11,496 bases of DNA from Breznakia sp. PF5-3 (GCF_029504745.1 NZ_JAQFIQ010000059.1:1-11496), one strand, 5' to 3'; counted from the stretch's first letter, positions 1 to 10,967 are shown. Notes: a model not told the origin generated them from the letters alone. A program made the numbers and translations.

Positions 1-93
1 CCGTTAAAATATACTGAACCGCCGTATACGGAACCGTACGTACGGTGGTGTGAGAGGTCGGTAACTGAATTAATCAGTTACCTCCTACTCGAT
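1..93 (+). mobile_element. 3' terminus of a group II intron (ribozyme domains V and VI), truncated at the left window edge; 3' boundary approximate
   Basis: 19-48 folds as domain V. The lower helix is CCGCCGTAT (19-27) / GTACGGTGG (40-48), with the two wobble pairs and the unpaired AC (38-39) typical of DV, and the CCGTAT...ACGTACGG core is the conserved DV sequence. The triad position reads CGC rather than AGC. The upper helix is short: ACG/CGT with a GAAC loop. 52-90 folds as domain VI, with a perfect 9-bp stem GGTAACTGA (60-68) / TCAGTTACC (74-82). The basal helix GAGAGG (52-57) / CCT-A-CTC (84-90) leaves A87 unpaired as a candidate branch point, so the 3' splice site is expected ~6-8 nt later. 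The segment is a GC-rich island in AT-rich DNA. Confidence 0.6.
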
Positions 94-217
94 TAAAAAG
101 TATTTAATTATTATACATATATATGATAAAATAGTTCTATATTATAATTAATAAATTATTGATTACAATAATTGAATAAATAAGCGATAAAAAGGAATTA
201 GAAAATGACAGATTCTG

Positions 218-244
218 TGAACCATTTTCTAGTTTCTTTGTCTT
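218..244 (+). promoter_or_regulatory. Candidate ECF-sigma-type promoter upstream of the fused sigma gene
   Basis: TGAAC (218-222), 17-nt spacer, GTCTT (240-244). This resembles the AAC -35 / (C)GT -10 pattern of ECF promoters and lies ~60 nt upstream of the ATG at 306. Motif match by eye only. Confidence 0.3.
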
Positions 245-305
245 TAAATTGAAGGGATTAATAACGATGAATGTTATTTTTATTTAGGTAAGGGCGGTAT
301 TAGAA

Positions 306-1601
306 ATGAAAATTGAAAAACAGTATATGATTTCGAAAGAGACAATCATAAAAGCAAGAAAGGGAGAAACAGAGGCATTTGCGACGATTTATAAGACATA
401 TTTTAAAAGGATTCATTTTATAGCAAATCAATTTGTTTTAAACGATGAATTGGCAAAAGATCTAGCACAAGATATTTTTGTAACAATCTATGAAAACATT
501 AAGGGTCTTAATGAGCCAAGTGCGTTTCATTCGTGGATTAAGAAGATTACATACAATAAATGTATCAACTATAATCGAGTTAAATTTAGAACAGTGACAT
601 TTGATGATGAGCAAGCAGTCGATAATATTGTTGATGAGAAACTAAAAGAACCAATCGATATTGTTGAGGGTGATCGCATAATGGGAGTAATAGAATCTTC
701 ATTGAATGAAATGAATGAGTCATTAAAATGTGTTGGTTTACTTCGTTATTTTGAAGGATATTCCATTCAAGAGATTGCTAGTACTTTAGAAATACCAAGA
801 GGTACAGTGAAATCAAGATTGTTTAGAATAAAGAGTCATTTAAAGAACAATTTAAAAGCTGCGGGGATTTCTCCTAAGTCTTTTGGATGTGCATTATTTT
901 TACCAAATTTGATTGCTCAAGGATATCAATGTTTGTATCTTCAAACTTCTGTTTCTGCTGGTGCAAAAATAGTTTTTGGTATAGGTGCTACAGGAGTATT
1001 TACTACCACAAAGGTAGCCACTACATTATTGGTAGCTACCGTTATTACCATATTGCCTGTTTTCTATCTTTCAAATCGCAATCAACCAGTATTTGCTGAA
1101 ATGAAACCAATTGAAGTAAATACATTGGAGAAAATTAAACCAACAGTTGATGAAGCGAAAATAGTTAATGTTTATTATGATGAGGCTTGGACAAGAGAAC
1201 CAGTTTTGATTAATGTTGAACTGACAAATCAAAATTATGATGAAATTTTAATAGATGATGAAAAAACGAATTATGTTTATGAAAACGGTAGACACACCAT
1301 AAAGATAATAAGAAATGGGAACATTATCGATCAAAAAGAGATTGATATTGCAAATATAGATATTGAAAGCCCATATGGAAGGAGTGAGCGTGAAGGAAAT
1401 AGTTTTAAAGTATATTTATCAGATGATACATCATATGTAAATCCCAATACCATTTCACTGTTGAGAAATGGTATAAAATCTAAGGAATTTGCATATGATC
1501 AAGATCGTAATATTTTATCAATTACAACTAAAAAGCATTATCAAGATGAATTATATATTAGTGATTATGCAGGGAATATATTTAAAATAGAATTTGAATA
1601 A
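306..1601 (+). CDS. ECF (sigma-70 family, group 4) sigma factor fused to a hydrophobic/transmembrane segment and a ~175-aa C-terminal (probably extracytoplasmic) domain
   Basis: 431-aa ORF. aa 1-183 carry sigma region 2 (DLAQDIFVTIYENIKGL...FHSWIKKITYNKCINYNR) and the region 4 helix-turn-helix (LRYFEGYSIQEIASTLEIPRGTVKSRLFRIKSHLKNNL). aa 195-236 are a G/A/S/T-rich semi-hydrophobic stretch. aa 237-255 (VATTLLVATVITILPVFYL) are a clear TM helix. aa 257-431 look like a beta-rich domain of unknown family. The SD is weak (AAGGG, 290-294). Confidence 0.85.
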   Translation: MKIEKQYMISKETIIKARKGETEAFATIYKTYFKRIHFIANQFVLNDELAKDLAQDIFVTIYENIKGLNEPSAFHSWIKKITYNKCINYNRVKFRTVTFDDEQAVDNIVDEKLKEPIDIVEGDRIMGVIESSLNEMNESLKCVGLLRYFEGYSIQEIASTLEIPRGTVKSRLFRIKSHLKNNLKAAGISPKSFGCALFLPNLIAQGYQCLYLQTSVSAGAKIVFGIGATGVFTTTKVATTLLVATVITILPVFYLSNRNQPVFAEMKPIEVNTLEKIKPTVDEAKIVNVYYDEAWTREPVLINVELTNQNYDEILIDDEKTNYVYENGRHTIKIIRNGNIIDQKEIDIANIDIESPYGRSEREGNSFKVYLSDDTSYVNPNTISLLRNGIKSKEFAYDQDRNILSITTKKHYQDELYISDYAGNIFKIEFE

Positions 1602-1605
1602 TTAA

Positions 1606-1667
1606 AAGTATAGATGCCATTGAATTATAAAAAGCAGTAAGTATATCTAAGTAGTTAAAAAGTATAG
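1606..1667 (+). repeat. Four direct copies of AAGTA(T)A(G) in the sigma-VWA intergenic region
   Basis: AAGTATAG at 1606-1613 and 1660-1667, AAGTATA at 1639-1645, AAGTAG at 1649-1654. The last three start 10-11 bp apart. The longer repeat TTAAAAGTATAG / TTAAAAAGTATAG occurs at 1602-1613 and 1655-1667. Confidence 0.4.
1620..1647 (+). promoter_or_regulatory. Weak candidate sigma-A-type promoter for the VWA gene
   Basis: TTGAAT (1620-1625), 16-nt spacer, TATATC (1642-1647). No terminator is visible between 1601 and 1695, so read-through from the sigma gene is equally possible. Confidence 0.25.
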
Positions 1668-1694
1668 TTAAGAAAGTCAAGGAGGGCAAAAATA

Positions 1695-3770
1695 ATGACT
1701 TATATACGAAGGAAAGGATTTAGAATTACAGTTGTTTTAATAGTTTTAGGAATATTTGTATCAATCATGTCAGATTATTTAATAGCAGATACAAAAAAAC
1801 CTATAAGAGATAAGAATACGAATTCGGCATACATAGTAGAAAAATCAGCAAGGTGGACAAATTCAGAAAAATATCTAGCTGAGTTAAACTTGAAAATAAA
1901 CGGAACAGAAAGAATAAATTCTTTAGATGTTGCGATTGTATTAGACCGTTCTGGTAGTATGGATATGAATTTTATCCAAGAAATTCCAGATGGTAATGGT
2001 GGTAATAAAGGAACCCATAATGCATCATCACCATGTTTAAATCAAGATCATTTTTATTTGAAAGAAACAACCGATGTACCTCAAGTTATTCCAAATACAT
2101 TGGATGAAATGTATTATGATGAAACAAATCAAAGGTTGACAGTATACAATGGAGAAAAAAAGCAGTGGGTGGTACTTGATACTTCAAATCGAATCCATTT
2201 ATATTTCCAATTTGGAAATATGGTTGGTGATGAAAATTCACTTGCTTTAGCTGCATATCATTTCAAACATGATGGAACTAATTTTGTTCGTATTAGTAAG
2301 TGGGATGAGAGTGATGTTCGTAAAGGAACGGCTGAGGGTATTTGGGATCATGGAGATGAAGCACAAGGTTGTTATGATCGCTGGATAGAAGCAAAAAAAG
2401 CAGTGGAAGCTTTTTCACAAAAATTAGCGCAAATAAATCAAGAAGAAGGCTTAATTGGAGATGAAGCTAATAATGTTGCATTGGTACCATTTTCGATTCG
2501 TGATGAAACGTTATTACATCGATTAAATAAAGGGACACCGTGGTATCGTAAATGGTTGATTCAAAATAATTATTTTGCAGGTACGACTGTAAATGTTGGT
2601 ACTGACGAAACCCTTAGTGGTGAATATAATGCCAAAGTAGGTTGGACAGATAATCCTACTGTGATTAGCTCAGCATTAAGTAAATTGTTTACTACTCATA
2701 CTACAGATTATATTTATGGTTTAGGTGAAGCATATAATTTGCTTGATGCAAGAAGTGAATCAGCTAAAAAGAATAAAAAAGCGGTTGTTTTATTGCTTTC
2801 AGATGGAACACCAGATCCAGCATCAGGAACTTTTAGTAATGCAGGGAATATTTATGCTTTTTGGAATAATGATAATCATATCTATGGAATCGCAAATGCT
2901 TTGAAAAATGCAGAAGACCAGATTGATAGTAGTGCTTTTTGGAAAGATATAAGTGGTCCATATCAACGTCATAGTGTAAAGCCTGATATTCTTGCCCGCA
3001 ATGATGCAAAGGGAATAAGTGGTGCTTATGGAGAAGAATCTGATATTATCAGTGTTGGATATATGCTTGATGCACAAGCTAGTAAAGATCGCTTAGCTAC
3101 GATTGCTTCAACACAAAGTGATTATATAGATATCTCAGCAGATGCAACAGGGTCAACAGAAAATTATTTGACCGAGAAGCTATTGCGAAGCATTGTAAGA
3201 CCAGGAGGTCGTAATGCGGTTTTGCGAGATGAGGTAAGTAAGTATTATTATGTTCCTGAAGATAGTGTGTTACCTCAAGGCGTAACAATTGATGGAACGA
3301 TAGAGAGTGGACAAACAATCGTTTGGACCATCGGTAATGTATATGAATACCCGAAAGGACAAGAACCAAGTATAAGTATTCCACTTGTGTTAAAAGAAGA
3401 GTATCGTAGTGTTAAATCAACGACATATTATCCAACGAATAAAGATAATCCAGAACCAGATTTAACAACACCAGATCCAGGAAAAGATGGTGAAGATACA
3501 GGTGCGAAATTATATTATACAGACTTTGATGGAAATGATCGTTATGACACGATAGGAACACCAAAGCTTCCTGTTTATCCAAAAAAAGAAGAAAAACCTT
3601 CTTTTACACCAAAACCATCAAAAGCTCCAGAAGATTTGGTAAACATCATCATGTTGCCAAGCAAAAGTCCAATGCTTGGAGATGAAACAAATGTTCCTTT
3701 CTACTTGATGCTATTGATGATAAGTTTAGTGGGTCTCACATATAATATAAGGATAAAAAATAAAAGGTGA
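1695..3770 (+). CDS. Secreted VWA-domain surface protein (adhesin/pilin-tip-like) with a C-terminal sorting-signal-like anchor
   Basis: 691-aa ORF with a strong SD (AAGGAGGG, 1679-1686). The N-terminal signal peptide has an RRKGFR n-region and an ITVVLIVLGIFVSIM h-region. MIDAS motifs are present: DVAIVLDRSGSM (DxSxS at aa 84-88), TTDYIYGL, VVLLLSDGTPD. aa ~505-612 resemble the beta-sandwich stalk domain of Gram-positive adhesins (TIVWTIGNV...SIPLVLKEEY...YPTNKD...AKLYYTD). A Pro/Lys-rich linker (PKLPVYPKKEEKPSFTPKPSKAP) follows. The C-terminus has SPMLGDETN, a hydrophobic helix and an RIKNKR tail. Confidence 0.9.
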   Translation: MTYIRRKGFRITVVLIVLGIFVSIMSDYLIADTKKPIRDKNTNSAYIVEKSARWTNSEKYLAELNLKINGTERINSLDVAIVLDRSGSMDMNFIQEIPDGNGGNKGTHNASSPCLNQDHFYLKETTDVPQVIPNTLDEMYYDETNQRLTVYNGEKKQWVVLDTSNRIHLYFQFGNMVGDENSLALAAYHFKHDGTNFVRISKWDESDVRKGTAEGIWDHGDEAQGCYDRWIEAKKAVEAFSQKLAQINQEEGLIGDEANNVALVPFSIRDETLLHRLNKGTPWYRKWLIQNNYFAGTTVNVGTDETLSGEYNAKVGWTDNPTVISSALSKLFTTHTTDYIYGLGEAYNLLDARSESAKKNKKAVVLLLSDGTPDPASGTFSNAGNIYAFWNNDNHIYGIANALKNAEDQIDSSAFWKDISGPYQRHSVKPDILARNDAKGISGAYGEESDIISVGYMLDAQASKDRLATIASTQSDYIDISADATGSTENYLTEKLLRSIVRPGGRNAVLRDEVSKYYYVPEDSVLPQGVTIDGTIESGQTIVWTIGNVYEYPKGQEPSISIPLVLKEEYRSVKSTTYYPTNKDNPEPDLTTPDPGKDGEDTGAKLYYTDFDGNDRYDTIGTPKLPVYPKKEEKPSFTPKPSKAPEDLVNIIMLPSKSPMLGDETNVPFYLMLLMISLVGLTYNIRIKNKR

Positions 3771-3787
3771 TAACACCTTTTATTTTT
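3762..3787. terminator. Short bidirectional intrinsic terminator shared by the convergent VWA gene and the anti-sigma gene
   Basis: Stem AAAAGGTG (3762-3769) / CACCTTTT (3774-3781), loop ATAA, with T-runs following on both strands. It overlaps the TGA of the VWA gene and lies 5 nt past the anti-sigma stop. The stem is weak (only 4 G:C pairs). Confidence 0.5.
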
Positions 3788-4589
3788 AGTAATACATTGT
3801 TTCAATAATTTGTTTTAATTCATTACTGTCCACATAACCTGATAATGAATAGATTAAATTGTCTTTCGTGAAATTAGCGTAAGTTACATATGTACCATCC
3901 ATTTGTTTTAGTTTGTAAATAATAATCTTTGTATTTAAAGTACTACTAGTATATTCTTCAATTCGTATTGCATCCCCCATTGCATTTATATTTTCACCTG
4001 AAACATTGGAAGCATTTGAATATCCAGTAATGTGGAAGTTTATATTTGAAGTTGTTTCAGGATGATCAGGGCTTTGAATTAACTTGATTTGTTCAGCAGT
4101 CAATTCATTTTCAAACATTTTTACCAAATCAATTTTATGACCATTTGTAGAAGTGAAAGTAAGTGAATAACTAAGAATTATATTATTTTCAACAAATGGC
4201 TTATATAAAATAGATGATAGTGGTAACTTAGGTTTAAGATAGGATTGGTGTAAAGCTGTCTCAAGTTTTTCCATTGTTGCGTATTCATTAAATTCTTTTG
4301 GGAAATCATCAGATATATCAGTATAAGATGCTCTATCACTATTTAATATTTCCCCATTTTGATCTGTTGGTCCAAAAAAGAATTGTTTGACGGCTTCTTT
4401 GGCCTCTGCTAAGATGTTGGGGTTAAGTATACTTACCATACAGCCAATTATAAGTAGAGTGAAGGCGACTCTTTTTACTACTTTGAAACTATTTTTTTTC
4501 TGTTTGTGATTTACAATTTGATCAAATAGTATATATTTGTCGTTATCAGATAATTTGATTTTAAGCATTGCTTCTTTATACTCGTTCAT
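3786..4589 (-). CDS. Single-pass membrane anti-sigma factor (non-zinc type) with a ~190-aa extracytoplasmic domain
   Basis: The gene lies immediately downstream of an ECF sigma gene and overlaps it by 14 nt. A ~40-aa cytoplasmic N-terminus is followed by the TM helix VAFTLLIIGCMVSIL and an ectodomain. There is no HxxxCxxC motif. I chose the ATG at 4589 (MNEYKEAM...) because GAAGGAGG sits 6 nt upstream. The track start at 4607 is a TTG with no SD. The functional call is from context and topology, not from a recognised domain. Confidence 0.65.
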   Translation of the reverse strand: MNEYKEAMLKIKLSDNDKYILFDQIVNHKQKKNSFKVVKRVAFTLLIIGCMVSILNPNILAEAKEAVKQFFFGPTDQNGEILNSDRASYTDISDDFPKEFNEYATMEKLETALHQSYLKPKLPLSSILYKPFVENNIILSYSLTFTSTNGHKIDLVKMFENELTAEQIKLIQSPDHPETTSNINFHITGYSNASNVSGENINAMGDAIRIEEYTSSTLNTKIIIYKLKQMDGTYVTYANFTKDNLIYSLSGYVDSNELKQIIETMYY

Positions 4590-5070
4590 ATGATTCCTCC
4601 TTCTCAAATCGTTCTTTCAAAATATATTTTGCTTTACTAAGTCTTGATCGTAAAGTTGATGAACTTATATTTTGAATTTTAGAAATTTCTTCTATTGTGT
4701 AACCTTCATAATAATGAAGATAAATGATATCTTTATATTTAGTAGGAAGTTGTAATATACATGATAGTAAATATTGATCATGATGATTATTGATTCCAAA
4801 GAATTCTTCTAAATTAGGAATGTCACTTTTACGTTTGTTCCATACTTTTCTCAATTGATCTTTACAGTAGTTGATGGATACACGGATAATCCATGCTTTT
4901 TCATGTTCATCAGAAGTGAATTCTATATCTTTTTCTATTAGTTTAACAAAAATATCTTGTACACCATCTTTGGCATCAGCCTCATTTTTTAAAAAAAGAA
5001 AACAGATTCGAAAAACCATATCAACATGTTGTAAATATAATCTTTTTATTTGCTCATTACGGTTACTCAT
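4576..5070 (-). CDS. ECF (group 4) RNA polymerase sigma factor
   Basis: Region 2 is DGVQDIFVKLIEK...EKAWIIRVSINYCKDQLRK. Region 4 is LHYYEGYTIEEISKIQNISSSTLRSRLSKAKYILKE. I chose the ATG at 5070 (MSNRNEQ...) because AAAGGAG sits 6 nt upstream. The track start at 5085 is a GTG with no SD. Confidence 0.9.
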   Translation of the reverse strand: MSNRNEQIKRLYLQHVDMVFRICFLFLKNEADAKDGVQDIFVKLIEKDIEFTSDEHEKAWIIRVSINYCKDQLRKVWNKRKSDIPNLEEFFGINNHHDQYLLSCILQLPTKYKDIIYLHYYEGYTIEEISKIQNISSSTLRSRLSKAKYILKERFEKEESYERV

Positions 5071-5090
5071 ATTAACTCCTTTCACTTATC

Positions 5091-5117
5091 ATACGATTGA
5101 ACAAGGGGATTTGTCCA
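5091..5117 (-). promoter_or_regulatory. Candidate ECF-sigma-type (autoregulatory) promoter for the sigma/anti-sigma operon
   Basis: On the minus strand: TGGAC (5117-5113), 17-nt spacer, CGTAT (5095-5091). The architecture and spacing match the candidate at 218-244. The -10 element is only ~20 nt from the ATG, so the leader would be very short. Confidence 0.3.
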
Positions 5118-5164
5118 TTTCTTATTAAGTATTTTTCACAGGTGTATAAATACTGGTCAAAGAC

Positions 5165-5193
5165 TTTCTTTGAAAATATAAATACGCTATAAT
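5165..5193 (+). promoter_or_regulatory. Candidate sigma-A promoter of the U32-U32-proS operon
   Basis: A perfect TATAAT lies at 5188-5193, 20 nt upstream of the ATG, with a poor -35 (TTTCTT, 5165-5170, 17-nt spacer). An alternative is TGGTCA (5154-5159), 17 nt, TATAAA (5177-5182). Confidence 0.35.
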
Positions 5194-5213
5194 ATATGAG
5201 TTAAGGAGTTTGT

Positions 5214-6107
5214 ATGGTTAATATAATTGCTTCTCCATATAGAATGGATGATATTATAAATTTAAAACAAGCAGGAGCTACAACAATTGTTGCAGGAACT
5301 GATTTTTTTAGTGTTCGTAGTGTTTCGCATTTTAAGCAAGAAGAGTTAAAAGAAATGAAAAAGATTTGTGAAGTACAACATTTAAATTTATATGTATTAG
5401 TAAATCGGTTTTTTGTGGAAAATGAGTTGGAAGCATTACGTGAATACTTGAAGTATTTGAAAGCTATTGATGTAGATGGTATTTACTTTACGGATATAGG
5501 GGTATTGTATGAGGCGAAGCAATTAGGGATAGAGAATAAACTAATATATAATCCAGAGACAATGCTTACAAATTCGCTGGATATTCAAGAATATTTAGAT
5601 TTAGGAATAAAAATGGCGACTATTTCCAAGGAAATAACTTTGGAAAATATGTTGGAAATAAGCAAAAAAGTTCGTGGTGAATTAGAAGTAATCATTCATG
5701 GAAGATTAAATATGATGCATTCTAAAAGAATGTTGCTTACAAATTATATGAAATTTTTAAAGAAAGATATAAACTTACATAATGATTTTTCATTATATTT
5801 GATGGAAGAGAAGCGAGATGAACATCTTCCTATAGTAGAAGATGACGAAGGAACGCATATTTATACAGGGTTTACACTTGCATCATTTGAAGAAGTTCAT
5901 GATTTTATTGAAGCAGGTATTTTAAACTTGCGTATTGAATCGATGTTTTTATCAATAGATGATGTATGTCAGATTATTAAAGATTATCGTTATGTGATAG
6001 AACATCCCCGTGAGGGTAGGAAAATATACAAAGAGTATGAGGAAAAATATGTAACGCAAAATATAACAAAAGGTTTTATGTATAAGAAGACAGGAGTGAC
6101 AAAATGA
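5214..6107 (+). CDS. Peptidase U32 family protein, small paralog (B. subtilis YrrN-like; family linked to tRNA 5-hydroxyuridine formation)
   Basis: 297 aa, SD AAGGAG (5203-5208). It has U32 TIM-barrel-like features (DVDGIYFTDIG, EVIIHGRLNMM) and forms an ATGA stop/start overlap with the larger U32 gene, as in the yrrN-yrrO arrangement. It has only two Cys and lacks the four-Cys motif of its partner. Confidence 0.8.
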   Translation: MVNIIASPYRMDDIINLKQAGATTIVAGTDFFSVRSVSHFKQEELKEMKKICEVQHLNLYVLVNRFFVENELEALREYLKYLKAIDVDGIYFTDIGVLYEAKQLGIENKLIYNPETMLTNSLDIQEYLDLGIKMATISKEITLENMLEISKKVRGELEVIIHGRLNMMHSKRMLLTNYMKFLKKDINLHNDFSLYLMEEKRDEHLPIVEDDEGTHIYTGFTLASFEEVHDFIEAGILNLRIESMFLSIDDVCQIIKDYRYVIEHPREGRKIYKEYEEKYVTQNITKGFMYKKTGVTK

Positions 6108-7327
6108 AAAAGGTAGAATTATTAGCTCCTGCTGGGGATTTAGAAAGATTAAAGACAGCTATTCGTTATGGTGCTGATGCGGTATATATAGGAGGAAAGA
6201 AATTTTCACTTCGCTCTCGTGCTTCTAACTTTGATATTCCAGATATCGAAGCAGGGGTGGAATTTGCTAAAGAATATGGAGCACATGTGCATGTGACAGT
6301 GAATATGATACCTCATGAAGAAGATTTAGATGGATTACGTGAATATTTATTGGAGTTAGAACGTATTGGCGTTACAGCAATTATCGTAGCTAGTTTAAGT
6401 ATTATGAACTTAGCTAAAGAGGTGGCACCTAAATTGGAAGTCCATGTATCTACTCAACATTCTTCAACCAATAGTAGTGTTATAAAATTTTATGAATCGT
6501 TAGGTATGAATCGGGTAGTTTTGGCTCGTGAATGTACGCTTGAGGATATTAAGGCAACAATGGAGCAAGCCAATCTTCCTGTAGAAGCTTTTATTCATGG
6601 AGGAATGTGTGTTTCTTATTCAGGACGTTGTACACTTAGTAATAATATGACTGATCGTGATGCGAATCGTGGTGGATGTGCACAGAGTTGTCGATGGAAA
6701 TATCGCTTGTTTAAAGATGATCAACCACTTCATGATGAAGAGAAGCTCTTTTCGATGAGTAGCAAGGATTTATGTGCAATAGAATATGTACCTGCTTTGA
6801 TTGATGCTGGGGTTTCTAGTTTTAAAATTGAAGGAAGAATGAAATCGCAATATTATTTAGCAACGATTGTTCGTACATACCGCATGTTGATTGATGAATA
6901 TTATGCTAAGGGAGAAGTATCACCTGCACGGATTGCATTTTATCGTGATGAATTATCAAAAGCTGAAAATCGCAGAACAGCAAATGGATTTTATGCAGGG
7001 CACCCCAAAATGCAAGATCATCTATATGGAATTAATGGTTCAGGGGTTTCACAAGAATTTATAGCTTATGTTTTGGACTATGATGAAGCAACAAAGATTG
7101 CAAAATTGGAAGTTCGTAATAATTTCGCAAAAGGAATTCAAGCAGAAGCATTTGGACCAGATACAAAGAATACGAACTTCATTGTGGATATGTTATATAA
7201 TGAAGATGGAGAAATTGTTGAAGTTGCAAGAAATCCAATGGATATTTTATATACGAAAATTGATATAAAGATTAAAAAACATGATATGATTAGAAAGATT
7301 ATAGATAAACGTGAAAAGATATATTAG
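6104..7327 (+). CDS. Peptidase U32 family protein, large paralog (B. subtilis YrrO / E. coli YegQ-like)
   Basis: 407 aa. It has the classic U32 N-terminus MKKVELLAPAGDLERLKTAIRYGADAVYIGG and the family signature EAFIHGGMCVSYSGRCTLS. Four Cys are spaced CX6CX15CX3C (C169, C176, C192, C196). Confidence 0.92.
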   Translation: MKKVELLAPAGDLERLKTAIRYGADAVYIGGKKFSLRSRASNFDIPDIEAGVEFAKEYGAHVHVTVNMIPHEEDLDGLREYLLELERIGVTAIIVASLSIMNLAKEVAPKLEVHVSTQHSSTNSSVIKFYESLGMNRVVLARECTLEDIKATMEQANLPVEAFIHGGMCVSYSGRCTLSNNMTDRDANRGGCAQSCRWKYRLFKDDQPLHDEEKLFSMSSKDLCAIEYVPALIDAGVSSFKIEGRMKSQYYLATIVRTYRMLIDEYYAKGEVSPARIAFYRDELSKAENRRTANGFYAGHPKMQDHLYGINGSGVSQEFIAYVLDYDEATKIAKLEVRNNFAKGIQAEAFGPDTKNTNFIVDMLYNEDGEIVEVARNPMDILYTKIDIKIKKHDMIRKIIDKREKIY

Positions 7328-7337
7328 GAGGTAACAT

Positions 7338-9032
7338 ATGAAACTTAAAAATAGTTTCTTTTATACAATCAGAGAAGATGCAAAAGATGAAGAAAGTGTA
7401 AGTGGTAATTTATTAGTACGAGCTGGAATGATTAAAAAGAGTAGTGCAGGTATTTATATTACGATGCCAATGGGAAAACGAGTAATTTCAAAGATTGAAA
7501 ATATTGTTCGTGAAGAAATGAATGCAACAGGAGCACAAGAGCTTCATATGCCAGCTCTTATTTTAGAAGAAGTCTATGAGAACAGTGGTAGACGTGAGGC
7601 ATTTGGGTCTAATATGTTTTCATTAAATGATCGCTATAATAAGAAGTATGTGCTAGGTCCAACCCATGAAGAATTATTTGCGGCAGCGGGAATGATGCAT
7701 GGGAAGTCATATAAAGATTTTCCTTACAATCTATATCAGATTCAAACGAAATATCGTGATGAAACAAGACCACGATATGGATTGATTAGAACACGTGAAT
7801 TTACGATGAAAGATGCATATTCTTATGATTTAGATTTAGATGGATTACATACATCTTATATGAAGATGTATAATGCATATAAAAATAGTTTTGATCGAAT
7901 GCATTTAGATTATAAAATTGTGAAAGCAGATACTGGTGCAATGGGTGGACTGTTAAGTGAAGAGTTCCAAGCAATCTGTGATATTGGTGAAGACGTAGTG
8001 GTTTTATGTGACCATTGTGATTTCTCTAGTAATTTAGAGATTACAGAAGTGGTACTTCAAAATGAACCATCACAGGAAGTAGAAAAAGAAATAGAAATTG
8101 TAGAGACACCAAATGCGAAAACGATTGAAGAAGTGGCAGCCTTTTTCGGGAAACCAAGTGAAGCATTTGTGAAGACATTAATTTATAAAGTAGATGGTGA
8201 GCTTTATGCATTTTTATTAAAAGGTTCACGTGAATTAAATGAAACAAAAGTATTAAAACTGCTAGAGGCGAATGAAATGGAACTTGCATCCTTTGATGAA
8301 GTGAGTGAAATCACTGGCGCAAAAGTAGGGTTTGCAGGTCCTGTAGGATTAAATATAAAGATTATTATGGATAATGAAGTTGCTCAAATGAAGAATTTTA
8401 TTACTGGAGCAAACAAAAGTGATCATCACTATAAGAATGTAAACTTAAAGGACTTTGATCCTTATAAAGTAGCAGACATCGTTAGCGTACAAGAAGGCGA
8501 TGTTTGTCCAACTTGTGGAGGCAAGTTAAAATTTGCAAGAGGTATTGAAGTTGGAAATACATTTAAATTAGGAACAAAATATGCAGAAAGTATGGATTTT
8601 AAATATTTAGATAATGAAAATAAGCTTAAGCCTGTAGTTATGGGTTCTTATGGTATTGGGATCGAGAGATGTATGGCAGCAATTGTTGAACAATATCACG
8701 ATGAAAATGGAATTGTTTGGCCAATGAGTGTTGCTCCATACCAAGTAGAAATTGTTTTGGTAAATGTAAAAGATGAGATACAGACACAATTAGCAAATAA
8801 GCTTTATGATGACTTTACTGCAGCAGGTATTGAAGTTTTACTTGATGATCGTGATGAGCGAGCAGGAGTGAAATTCAAAGACAGTGAACTGATTGGAATA
8901 CCATTGAGAATCACAGTTGGAAAGCGTGCTAACGAAAACATTGTTGAAGTTAAAGAGCGAATAAGTGAAAAAGAAGAAATCGCAGTGGATGATTTATTGT
9001 CATATATAAATAAGAAAATAATGGATGCATAA
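7338..9032 (+). CDS. proS: Prolyl-tRNA synthetase, bacterial type with inserted editing (INS) domain
   Basis: 564 aa. Class II motif 2 is YRDETRPRYGLIRTREFTMKDAYS and motif 3 is GSYGIGIERCMAAIVEQ. The N-terminus FYTIREDAKDEESVSGNLLVRAGMIKK is typical of ProRS, and a ~170-aa insertion lies between motifs 2 and 3. SD AGGAGG at 7326-7331. Confidence 0.97.
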   Translation: MKLKNSFFYTIREDAKDEESVSGNLLVRAGMIKKSSAGIYITMPMGKRVISKIENIVREEMNATGAQELHMPALILEEVYENSGRREAFGSNMFSLNDRYNKKYVLGPTHEELFAAAGMMHGKSYKDFPYNLYQIQTKYRDETRPRYGLIRTREFTMKDAYSYDLDLDGLHTSYMKMYNAYKNSFDRMHLDYKIVKADTGAMGGLLSEEFQAICDIGEDVVVLCDHCDFSSNLEITEVVLQNEPSQEVEKEIEIVETPNAKTIEEVAAFFGKPSEAFVKTLIYKVDGELYAFLLKGSRELNETKVLKLLEANEMELASFDEVSEITGAKVGFAGPVGLNIKIIMDNEVAQMKNFITGANKSDHHYKNVNLKDFDPYKVADIVSVQEGDVCPTCGGKLKFARGIEVGNTFKLGTKYAESMDFKYLDNENKLKPVVMGSYGIGIERCMAAIVEQYHDENGIVWPMSVAPYQVEIVLVNVKDEIQTQLANKLYDDFTAAGIEVLLDDRDERAGVKFKDSELIGIPLRITVGKRANENIVEVKERISEKEEIAVDDLLSYINKKIMDA

Positions 9033-9272: not shown

Positions 9273-10967
9273 ATGAAAGAAAAGTTATATTTGCAAGATA
9301 ATGTCGCTATCATGAATTTTGATTTAGCTTATCCTTCCAACATGGAAGAATTGGTTGGTTCTAAGACATTAGGTACATTTGTGGTTAAATATTTAAAATA
9401 TTTGGAAGCAAGAGATCCTGAATTATATAGTTGGATTACAAATGGATATAGTGTTAATGAAACATGTAAATCTTTGTCAAAAGTATTTAGACAGTTAATG
9501 GTAATGTCACCAGATGAAATTGATGATTATTATTTAACAGATAGCAAAAAATTGTTGGAGTTTGTTGAGGGGATTTATAATTATTGGAAATCTCATCAAA
9601 GATTCTCAATTACAAGACAACGGTACAGTGGAAAAAATGCAACTCCTTTTGTAATGGCCGATTCGACTTTTAATACGACACTTCGTAGTGCGTATCGTAG
9701 ACTTGAGCAAAAACTACAAGGAAGAAAGAATGGTGTTTTCCGTCAGTTGCAAGCAGGTACAAATGCAGCAATTTCAGCATATCGACCAAGAAATTTTCCT
9801 TTATCTGAGAAATATGAAAAATTATCTGGAATTTCAATGATTGAATCAGTAATGCTTAGAACACCAATGATTTTATCAACAAAGTCTAACAAACGTACAG
9901 GTATGTTTGAAGAAACAAAGAAAAATCCAATTGAATATTTTACAGGAGATAAAGACACTTGGTTCTGTTATCCAGCAAAAGTAGGTAATTTATTGATTAA
10001 CATTTATTTCCACCGTGATTTTATGTGTAGTGGTGTTTCATTAGCAAACTTATTTGAATTAGCCTCTGCTGAGGAATGTTGTGAAAAACCAGATGCAATC
10101 GTTTTGTTTGCAAATGAAGATAATAAAGATGAAACGGTTTTCTATTATGATGAAGAAGAAGAAATTTATGTAGGAAGTATTTCTTATAATGAAAAAGTTG
10201 AATATTTTGGATATATGAAAAAGATGACTTTAACACTTCATAATCTTGCGATGATGAGACGTGGATGGTTACCAATTCATGGTGCGTTTATCAACATCAC
10301 ATTATATGATGGAAAACGTAAAGGAATCATGTTAATGGGTGATTCTGGAGCTGGGAAATCAGAATCAATTGAAGCATTAAAGGCTTTAGGTAATGATGTA
10401 ATTAAAGATATTGAGGTTGTGTTTGATGATATGGGAACAATTCATATTGAAGATGGTGTTCCATATGGACAAGGTACGGAAATAGGGGCATTTATTCGTT
10501 TAGATGATTTAGATCCAGGAACTCCTTATCGTGATATGGACCGTTCTATCTTCTTTAATCCAGATGTATTAAATGCAAGGGTAATAACACCGGCAGCGCC
10601 ATATAGTGTAATTTCAAAAAATCATGAAATTGATTTATTCTGTTATGCTAATAATTATGATAAAGATTTGGGAATGCGCAAAATTGATGATATGGAAGAA
10701 GCAAAACCAATTTTTGTTGAAGGAAAACGTATGGCAAAAGGAACAACTCAAGAAGTTGGTTTATCAACAACATATTTTGCTAATCCATTTGGACCAATGC
10801 AGGAACAAGATGTTTGTGATCCAATCATTAATGAAGTATTTGATTGTTTAAAAGCTAATGGAATCTATATTGGTGAGATTTTCACACATTTAGGTCTTGA
10901 CCGTAATGACCGTGATGGAATCAATGTAGCAGCTCAAAAACTGTTAGAATTTATTCAAGAAGGATAA
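9273..10967 (+). CDS. Uncharacterised protein with a C-terminal HPr kinase/phosphorylase-like (PEPCK-fold) P-loop domain
   Basis: 564 aa, SD GGAGG (9261-9265). aa 333-410 are LPIHGAFINITLYDGKRKGIMLMGDSGAGKSESIEALKALGNDVIKDIEVVFDDMGTIHIEDG...GTEIGAFIRL. These parallel the HprK C-terminal domain pattern HG-x(n)-G-x-SG-x-GKSE-x(n)-DD-x(n)-EIRG. The N-terminal ~320 aa have no motif I recognise. The gene has its own terminator and a 215-bp upstream spacer, so it is monocistronic. Confidence 0.8.
   Translation: MKEKLYLQDNVAIMNFDLAYPSNMEELVGSKTLGTFVVKYLKYLEARDPELYSWITNGYSVNETCKSLSKVFRQLMVMSPDEIDDYYLTDSKKLLEFVEGIYNYWKSHQRFSITRQRYSGKNATPFVMADSTFNTTLRSAYRRLEQKLQGRKNGVFRQLQAGTNAAISAYRPRNFPLSEKYEKLSGISMIESVMLRTPMILSTKSNKRTGMFEETKKNPIEYFTGDKDTWFCYPAKVGNLLINIYFHRDFMCSGVSLANLFELASAEECCEKPDAIVLFANEDNKDETVFYYDEEEEIYVGSISYNEKVEYFGYMKKMTLTLHNLAMMRRGWLPIHGAFINITLYDGKRKGIMLMGDSGAGKSESIEALKALGNDVIKDIEVVFDDMGTIHIEDGVPYGQGTEIGAFIRLDDLDPGTPYRDMDRSIFFNPDVLNARVITPAAPYSVISKNHEIDLFCYANNYDKDLGMRKIDDMEEAKPIFVEGKRMAKGTTQEVGLSTTYFANPFGPMQEQDVCDPIINEVFDCLKANGIYIGEIFTHLGLDRNDRDGINVAAQKLLEFIQEG

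Follow-up and report, generated by a model that had tools for sequence, protein, structure and literature searches.

A membrane-fused ECF sigma factor followed by a VWA-domain surface protein gene in Breznakia: a candidate autoregulated sigma-adhesin cassette

In Bacillus subtilis, the extracytoplasmic function (ECF) sigma factor SigW controls an envelope-stress regulon from promoters with the consensus TGAAAC-N16-CGTA, and is held by a separate membrane anti-sigma factor, RsiW, whose degradation is carried out by PrsW and RasP. In other ECF sigmas a transmembrane C-terminal extension belongs to the sigma itself, as already described for ECF243, ECF52, ECF53, ECF48, and ECF263. IutY of Pseudomonas putida (ECF243) joins in one polypeptide an ECF sigma at the N-terminus, a segment across the membrane, and a C-terminal domain outside the cytoplasm; it is a Gram-negative fusion of the FecI/FecR type, with a recognizable anti-sigma region, a TonB-dependent receptor, and siderophore signaling, and it is reported to be activated by regulated proteolysis via Prc and RseP, a truncated form being constitutively active (PMC8999054). 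Streptomyces coelicolor SCO4117 (ECF52) and the ECF48 and ECF53 groups of actinobacteria also carry a C-terminal transmembrane extension with an extracellular sensor-like domain and are predicted to be released by proteolysis (PMC8999054); they feature a ZAS-like zinc finger, one to two helices, a proline-rich region, and a carbohydrate-binding domain, and the excerpts of PMC8999054 consulted make no mention of a multi-copy sigma-adhesin layout for them. A functional analogy is offered by Clostridium thermocellum, where multiple SigI/RsgI pairs within one genome act as paralogous membrane sensors with extracellular domains, each driving genes for particular surface or secreted proteins (PMC4711584). 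SigI, however, lies outside the ECF sigmas, its sensor RsgI is encoded separately and bears carbohydrate-binding modules, and the targets are cellulosomal enzymes, not anchored adhesins. Here we describe an 11,496-nucleotide stretch of Breznakia sp. PF5-3 (GCF_029504745.1, NZ_JAQFIQ010000059.1:1-11496; hereafter the window, ~30% G+C) in which the gene for a membrane-fused ECF sigma is followed, on the same strand, by the gene for an adhesin-like VWA-domain protein. We favor, with moderate confidence, the view that ~211–3787 is a single self-contained two-gene cassette composed of an ECF-type promoter, the membrane-tethered ECF sigma, the VWA gene, and a terminator hairpin (Table 1).

The fused sigma belongs by its domains to the ECF (group 4) sigma-70 factors, with sigma2 and sigma4 present and sigma3 and sigma1.1 absent, as is also true of the conventional sigma at 4576–5085. 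Its residues 15–185 matched PF04542 (Sigma70_r2), PF08281 (r4_2), and PF07638 (Sigma70_ECF), with TIGR02937 at 84 bits against a cutoff of 42.9; the profile also matched SigW and sigma-E structures, and SigW (5wuq, E = 1.6e-40) was the closest solved relative of the core. The C-terminal extension of ~245 aa contains one hydrophobic helix (~aa 236–254). Residues 187–431 gave no Pfam match at E ≤ 1, and the ectodomain had no sequence match in Pfam, NCBIfam, or the PDB; an AlphaFold2 (AF2) model of the ectodomain (pLDDT 82.5) consisted of two beta-sandwich modules with an immunoglobulin-like (Ig-like) fold, for which the best Foldseek match was to the cadherin-like modules of the staphylococcal adhesin SraP, at TM-scores that were low since two domains were compared at once. 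An exact-sequence look-up of the fused sigma returned no record. From this build we predict, somewhat more confidently than not, a one-component transmembrane signal transducer, in which the core is cytoplasmic, a short juxtamembrane segment and the one helix form the tether, and the two Ig-like modules face outward. The ectodomain is placed outside the cell because the same module repeats in giant proteins that have no sigma core and that are taken to be surface proteins. Compared with IutY, the window sigma is a Firmicute protein that has ~45 aa without a detectable anti-sigma region before the helix, Ig-like modules outside, and a predicted operon with an adhesin gene; compared with the SCO4117 groups, it has no Cys/His motif and none of the domains listed for them. 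It differs from SigW/RsiW, with which it shares the relationship of its core and a promoter of similar type, in that the latter involves a separate anti-sigma and an envelope-stress regulon instead of a single adjacent adhesin gene. The preliminary description of this locus knew of no system pairing a membrane-fused ECF sigma with a VWA surface protein. Membrane-fused ECF sigmas as such are already known, and what literature searches did not retrieve is the fused-sigma/adhesin cassette; nor did they retrieve a description of this Firmicute family, of an Ig-like ectodomain without an anti-sigma domain, or of multi-copy pairing with adhesins.

The fused sigma is a member of a multi-copy family. 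Eight members aligned in the order ECF core, post-sigma4 segment, one hydrophobic helix, variable linker, and ~150 conserved ectodomain residues, the last carrying the motifs NIDxESP and YISDYAGN. Word-indexed searching recovered just two full-length relatives, and more divergent ones came from the neighborhoods of VWA homologues. With the ectodomain alignment as query, a word-indexed search of proteins gave no more than 3, and the family became visible through an exhaustive ectodomain profile search, which produced 659 matches at E ≤ 1e-3. Among the best 150 of these 659, 80 were short, and 74 of the 80 had an N-terminal ECF core with the domain at the C-terminus, in proteins of ~320–470 aa (most 420–445); the remaining six were mostly fragments. 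The build, an ECF core followed by a single membrane helix and a pair of Ig-like modules, is represented by at least 74 clusters at 50% identity. The other 66 of the best 150 matches were giant proteins of ~800–4500 aa, in which the module recurs 4–32 times in tandem and a sigma core is absent; these repeat proteins (P0063–P0208) had weak Pfam matches to BiPBP_C and Big_3_2, the module itself lying outside any Pfam family. When the C-terminal part, as an alignment of six sequences, was used to scan genomes, 12 loci were found in three of them, several with two copies: six loci with at least eight fused-sigma copies in Breznakia pachnodae DSM 16784, three loci in B. blatticola DSM 28867, and three in a Coprobacillaceae metagenome-assembled genome. 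The first two are cultured type strains, each with several cassettes, and named family members come from Breznakia and Thomasclavelia. A metagenome scan yielded a single locus, whose product is a repeat protein of 1442 aa instead of a fused sigma.

Genes for surface proteins lie beside most of these sigmas. In a manual count, 15 of 20 distinct fused sigmas had a same-strand downstream gene for a secreted, C-terminally anchored protein (locus L003 is included, with the anchor on the second downstream open reading frame, ORF), most gaps being 1–35 bp, and two more had a surface-protein gene immediately upstream. Among the direct neighbors of a fused sigma, 16 of 30 genes were surface-like, vs. 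3 of the 62 remaining genes of those loci (Fisher p = 2.5e-7). Pairs of a fused sigma with a VWA gene occurred in three non-syntenic contexts: beside U32 peptidase and ProRS genes (the window, L001, and L007), with AraC and PadR (L004), and between PLD and GroES/EL (L005). A functional link between fused sigma and VWA gene is therefore supported by three contexts, shared strand, lack of a terminator, and a conserved upstream promoter, as had been proposed from the window alone; specificity for VWA did not hold, as the neighborhoods of homologous fused sigmas, which do include VWA genes, also include many other partner types. These are an LRR protein for the L005 paralogue, SpaA/FctA proteins in L012, L013, and L014, Listeria-Bacteroides-repeat or PMP-repeat proteins in L009 and L011, and large repeat proteins of 1052–1810 aa in L010, L015, and L016. 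Nearly all partners begin with a signal peptide and end in a degenerate [P/V]-x-[T/A/L]-[G/S/V]-D motif, a hydrophobic stretch, and basic residues. Each fused sigma appears to stand beside a different cell-surface protein, so that the cell would have one private switch per adhesin. In a rough neighbor-joining tree, sigma clades partly matched partner type (L012/13/14, L015/16, and the window with L001B). Recognition by the ectodomain of the same module in its partner adhesin was considered and rejected, the module being absent from all partner proteins.

Several of these loci have arrangements of their own. Two divergent fused sigmas of the same architecture but ~23–25% identity were seen at L005:16819–18159 (minus strand, 446 aa) and L003:2103–3389 (428 aa); the former precedes the LRR surface protein gene (L005:14960–16798, minus strand), and the latter precedes two small secreted or anchored proteins (3417–4582), so that the pairing extends past the core family. 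In L005, one fused sigma is followed by two tandem VWA paralogues (6722–8836 and 9827–11911) that lie ~1 kb apart and each share ~60% identity with the window protein. In L001 (10001–13067) and in B. pachnodae (L007, 3645–6732), two tandem fused sigmas stand between a gene for a 964–980-aa surface protein and the VWA gene. Upstream of the first there is a terminator-like hairpin and no P1; the second is the one to which the window sigma is orthologous, a group II intron in the window occupying the place of the first.

Adjacency by itself could be structural, with sigma and surface genes co-traveling as duplicating or mobile cassettes in which the sigma exerts no control over its neighbor. The family is multi-copy, its loci are found in varied contexts, a group II intron adjoins the window cassette, and partner types follow the sigma tree only in part, all of which would fit. 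We nevertheless consider this improbable, for the paired genes share a strand, their gaps are short, they have a single upstream promoter motif even in L008, where the gene order is reversed, and surface-gene enrichment is specific to the immediately adjacent positions; taken together, these are features of operons. In the window, the 93-bp gap between the two genes formed no stable structure (fold z = +1.1), and a terminator scan of 1–5400 found no terminator-like site. Because the gap holds no terminator, the same transcript would carry the adhesin gene. A separate copy of P1 for the VWA gene within the gap was rejected, as no match to the matrix was present there. At the far end of the VWA gene, the shared bidirectional hairpin claimed in the preliminary description was borne out by folding (−14.4 kcal/mol, z = −4.78, with none of 200 shuffled sequences folding as well). 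It overlaps the stop codons of both converging genes and is likely a bidirectional terminator common to the two units; the consensus terminator scan missed it because its stem has too few G-C pairs.

A promoter motif of ECF type, P1, precedes the fused sigma gene. Across the family it consists of an A-tract, TGAxAC, TTTT, and GTCTTA, with 17 nt from AC to GTC. A matrix built from seven sites and run over 465,190 positions matched, outside its training set, at six further operons (L008, L013, L011, L016, L005, and L004), 64–145 nt upstream of the operon start, with only three off-target matches of comparable score; in L008, P1 lies upstream of the adhesin gene that comes first there. Compared with the B. 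pachnodae orthologue, the −35 and −10 blocks and the 17-nt spacing of the window P1 are kept and the spacer sequence differs. P1 resembles the SigW consensus, and autoregulation by the fused sigma is plausible because of this resemblance together with SigW being the closest solved relative of the core. A 17-nt inverted repeat (191–207/223–239, AAAGGAATTAGAAAATG / CATTTTCTAGTTTCTTT; 88% complementary, 15-nt loop) overlaps P1, its loop holding most of the −35 and its right arm coinciding with the spacer; it had no obvious conservation in the B. pachnodae orthologue. It could serve as an operator site. An invertible promoter, as in phase variation, was rejected, since this sole inverted repeat overlaps the promoter instead of flanking it.

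Taken together, the explanation toward which we lean is an autoregulated, signal-gated, membrane-tethered sigma-adhesin cassette; in its broad form, that of an autoregulated sigma-adhesin operon, the claim appears likely. What the analysis establishes is the architecture, the family, the conserved adjacency, the promoter motif, and a gap free of terminators; reading of P1 by the fused sigma, its gating by a signal, and proteolysis as the gate are inferences. In such a mechanism, the active core of the fused sigma would direct RNA polymerase to the promoter before its own gene, giving positive autoregulation; the adhesin gene would be transcribed along with the sigma gene, with no terminator in between; and gating from outside the cell would act via ectodomain and linker, regulated proteolysis freeing the sigma core as for IutY. 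That the fused sigma is signal-gated in some form is most likely. Activation by proteolytic release of the core is proposed more tentatively, by analogy, and its chances are well short of even.

Several observations weigh against this explanation. With a matrix that left out the window and its orthologue, the window P1 ranked third of 22,902 positions, which is only modest support when taken alone. Unbiased dyad enumeration detected a second ECF-like motif, TGAACG-N16/17-CGACTAA, in 8 of 21 upstream regions vs. 16 of 1648 background windows, and a looser pattern scan found 9 intergenic sites (10 with a loose match in L017), all upstream of Breznakia cassettes; the motif suggests a shared second sigma input to fused-sigma operons in the genus. 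A weak sigma-70-like match (9/12) at 1668–1696 makes a weak case for an independent VWA promoter. The VWA-linked sigmas are not monophyletic, those of L004 and L005 falling apart from the window sigma in the rough tree, so strict co-inheritance is unsupported. Downstream of the L002 fused sigma no adjacent surface gene is present (its upstream side is cut short by the contig end), and the L017B fused sigma is followed by a two-component system. Finally, the ~45 aa between sigma4 and the membrane helix contain no detectable anti-sigma domain (ZAS, FecR-type, or RskA-type) and no conserved Cys/His pattern, and the full-length AF2 model is poor (pLDDT 56.6 overall, 35–60 in the juxtamembrane segment).

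[quoted passage not shown] The ~45-aa juxtamembrane segment may be a minimal inhibitor, possibly one of two helices, as its sequence would allow; inhibition may come from tethering itself; or else the sigma may be active while tethered. The last case can be developed into a rival explanation, in which a constitutively active fused sigma holds surface-gene transcription at the membrane and so couples transcription, translation, and secretion, expression level being set by other regulators or the second promoter. The partners are all exported and often very large (1000–2000 aa), the Ig-like modules have no recognizable ligand-binding or enzymatic features, and both fit this rival alongside the absent anti-sigma domain. 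Conservation of ectodomain and juxtamembrane segment among paralogues of only 20–45% identity argues instead for a function beyond anchoring, and we know of no precedent for a sigma that works while bound to the membrane. On these grounds activity in the tethered state is regarded as unlikely. Activation by proteolysis, as reported for the characterized fused ECF sigma (PMC8999054), also stands against it.

The second rival concerns the conventional ECF sigma and candidate anti-sigma genes that converge on the cassette from the right. ORF listing and family scans confirmed the gene order given in the preliminary description, that is, fused ECF sigma, VWA gene, hairpin, and, on the opposite strand, candidate anti-sigma and conventional ECF sigma. 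The further proposal that both ECF modules control the VWA gene, in parallel or antagonistically, was not supported. In the syntenic L001 and L007 an APH-family gene is found in place of the conventional pair, the pair is missing also from the sigma-VWA loci L004 and L005, and it sits beside U32/ProRS only in a near-identical relative (GCA_030266565.1), where, as in the window, the two units are adjacent and convergent. Many fused-sigma operons of B. pachnodae carry TGAACG-N16/17-CGACTAA, so that a second shared sigma input in the genus would speak for two inputs, and the TGAAAA-N17-GGACAAA motif ahead of the conventional sigma bears it a loose likeness, too weak to connect the two; the window operon has no copy of the second motif. 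The strong bidirectional hairpin separates the units, and the convergent orientation gives no promoter access to the VWA gene. We consider joint control very improbable. The conventional sigma may instead have, in TGAAAA-N17-GGACAAA, a distinct ECF-type promoter of its own, to judge from the motif, and the pair is probably an unrelated neighbor; as a conserved part of the cassette it was rejected, being absent from every other sigma-VWA locus. The label "anti-sigma" for the protein at 3786–4607 agrees with its position, its overlap with the sigma gene, and its single membrane helix, and has no family or structure match behind it: Pfam and NCBIfam searches gave nothing even at E ≤ 1, and the PDB gave no match.

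The downstream gene of the cassette encodes a protein whose Pfam VWA_2 match is weak (29.3 bits vs. a cutoff of 27) and beyond which Pfam, NCBIfam, and PDB sequence searches returned nothing. Its MIDAS-type motif, DRSGSM (aa 84–89), is kept in all listed VWA homologues. An N-terminal signal peptide is present, and the C-terminus reads SPMLGD, then a hydrophobic segment, then RIKNKR; of the sorting signal ascribed to it earlier, the hydrophobic segment and basic tail are there, and SPMLGD stands in place of a canonical LPXTG. Surface proteins of this lineage share such a sorting-like signal, which differs from LPXTG (e.g., APRTGD and NVVTGD). An extended form, [P/V]-x-[T/A/L]-[G/S/V]-D-x-[T/S]-N with a hydrophobic stretch and then a K/R tail behind it, was noted at the C-termini of partners in the window (3650–3767), L012 (6771–11558), and L005 (14960–16804). 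The degenerate motif of the partners is reminiscent of the clostridial sortase B motifs (S/P)PxTG and NVQTG. VWA homologues were 57–98% identical in Breznakia and Coprobacillaceae and ~37–42% identical in Lactococcus "Spy0128 family" LPXTG/FctA/SpaA proteins, and the homologue in L006 has no sigma neighbor; on present evidence, the sigma link of VWA genes is confined to the Breznakia/Coprobacillaceae lineage. The signal peptide, the MIDAS-type motif, and the C-terminal sorting-like signal are shared with VWA pilus tip adhesins (RrgA, SpaC, and GBS104 type; Lactococcus "Spy0128 family"), from which the window protein differs in having no detected FctA/SpaA isopeptide stalk and SPMLGD instead of LPXTG. 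Around the VWA genes of the window, L001, L004, and L005, no sortase or pilin ORF was found.

How Gram-positive gut symbionts choose which adhesins to display is largely an open question. If the explanation favored here is true, multi-copy tethered sigmas with one adhesin gene each would amount to a compact form of cell-surface control, and the family would exemplify ECF sigma control without a recognizable anti-sigma domain. A far-reaching generalization, which we put forward as doubtful, is that Erysipelotrichales gut symbionts possess a hitherto undescribed class of "one sigma per adhesin" switches, in which each fused sigma would sense an external or cell-wall cue via Ig-like modules and linker, or else the export or anchoring of its partner, and activate only its own two-gene operon by positive feedback with no separate anti-sigma; each of a dozen or more surface adhesins would then be under independent, possibly bistable control. 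The −35 elements vary among the paralogous sigma/promoter pairs, and these pairs could be of use as orthogonal switches in Firmicute engineering.

Table 1. Features of the sigma-VWA locus in the window, with sites of the second promoter motif in comparison loci (nt, nucleotides; numbering from the first letter of the window unless a locus is given).
Feature	Position	Strand	Basis or remark
Group II intron 3′ end, domains V/VI	17–93	+	Rfam RF00029 (Intron_gpII), 48.1 bits vs. gathering score 40, E = 4e-7, model positions 1–77 of 77
ECF-type (SigW-like) promoter motif P1	211–249	+	−35 TGAACC 218–223, −10 GTCTTTA 240–246; 57 nt before sigma start codon
Membrane-fused ECF sigma, 431 aa	306–1601	+	Pfam, NCBIfam, family alignment, AF2, Foldseek
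Sigma2/sigma4 core	348–860	+	
Conserved juxtamembrane segment, directly after sigma4	864–953	+	GISPKxF..P.L..GY; family alignment motif GISPKxY..P..L..AY
Single membrane helix	~1011–1067	+	
Two Ig-like modules, after variable linker	1089–1598	+	
Sigma-VWA gap, 93 bp	1602–1694	+	No terminator, no P1; strong ribosome-binding site AAGGAGGG before VWA start
VWA-domain adhesin-like protein, 691 aa	1695–3770	+	Pfam VWA_2, MIDAS-type motif, termini
Perfect 14-bp palindromic hairpin, AAAAAATAAAAGGTG-ATAA-CACCTTTTATTTTT	3756–3787	both	A-run on one side, T-run on the other
Candidate anti-sigma, single-pass membrane protein, 267–273 aa	3786–4607	−	Likely start ATG 4589, overlapping the end of the sigma gene
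Conventional ECF sigma, 164–169 aa	4576–5085	−	Pfam r2 and r4_2, TIGR02937; start probably ATG 5070
Promoter-like motif TGAAAA-N17-GGACAAA, upstream of conventional sigma	5107–5146	−	Pattern scan, sequence
Second motif TGAACG-N16/17-CGACTAA	L001:6809–6848; L002:105–144; L008:3037–3076; L009:2108–2147, 5353–5392; L010:5373–5412; L012:5371–5410; L015:5356–5395; L017:1812–1850		Looser pattern scan

At the left edge of the window, the "group II intron remnant" of the preliminary description proved to be the 3′ end of such an intron. Since the contig starts inside it, with the upstream intron domains and the intron-encoded protein beyond the contig edge, a remnant and a complete intron cut by the assembly are indistinguishable. 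The right edge was correctly described as housekeeping: a family scan placed two U32 peptidase genes and ProRS, all on the plus strand, downstream of 5085. The right-hand genes of the window are also found in assembly GCA_030266565.1, and the fused sigma and the VWA protein are 95–98% identical to partial proteins of Breznakia sp. OttesenSCG-928-G09, which points to a Breznakia (Erysipelotrichales) from material of animal-gut type. For an ORF of 564 aa at 9273–10967 (plus strand), the only matches were P-loop-type ones to PEPCK_ATP and HPr kinase, weak and under the respective cutoffs.

Fused ECF sigmas of another kind, 539–604 aa in length, were observed at L021:5001–8164 and L023:321–3450. 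They have a similar post-sigma4 motif, G-x-KLY...P..LL, one membrane helix, and unrelated ectodomains, and in both cases the next gene encodes a lipoprotein bearing a lipobox (LCAC/LTAC). From these two cases, a membrane-fused ECF sigma with an exported neighbor may be a wider theme.

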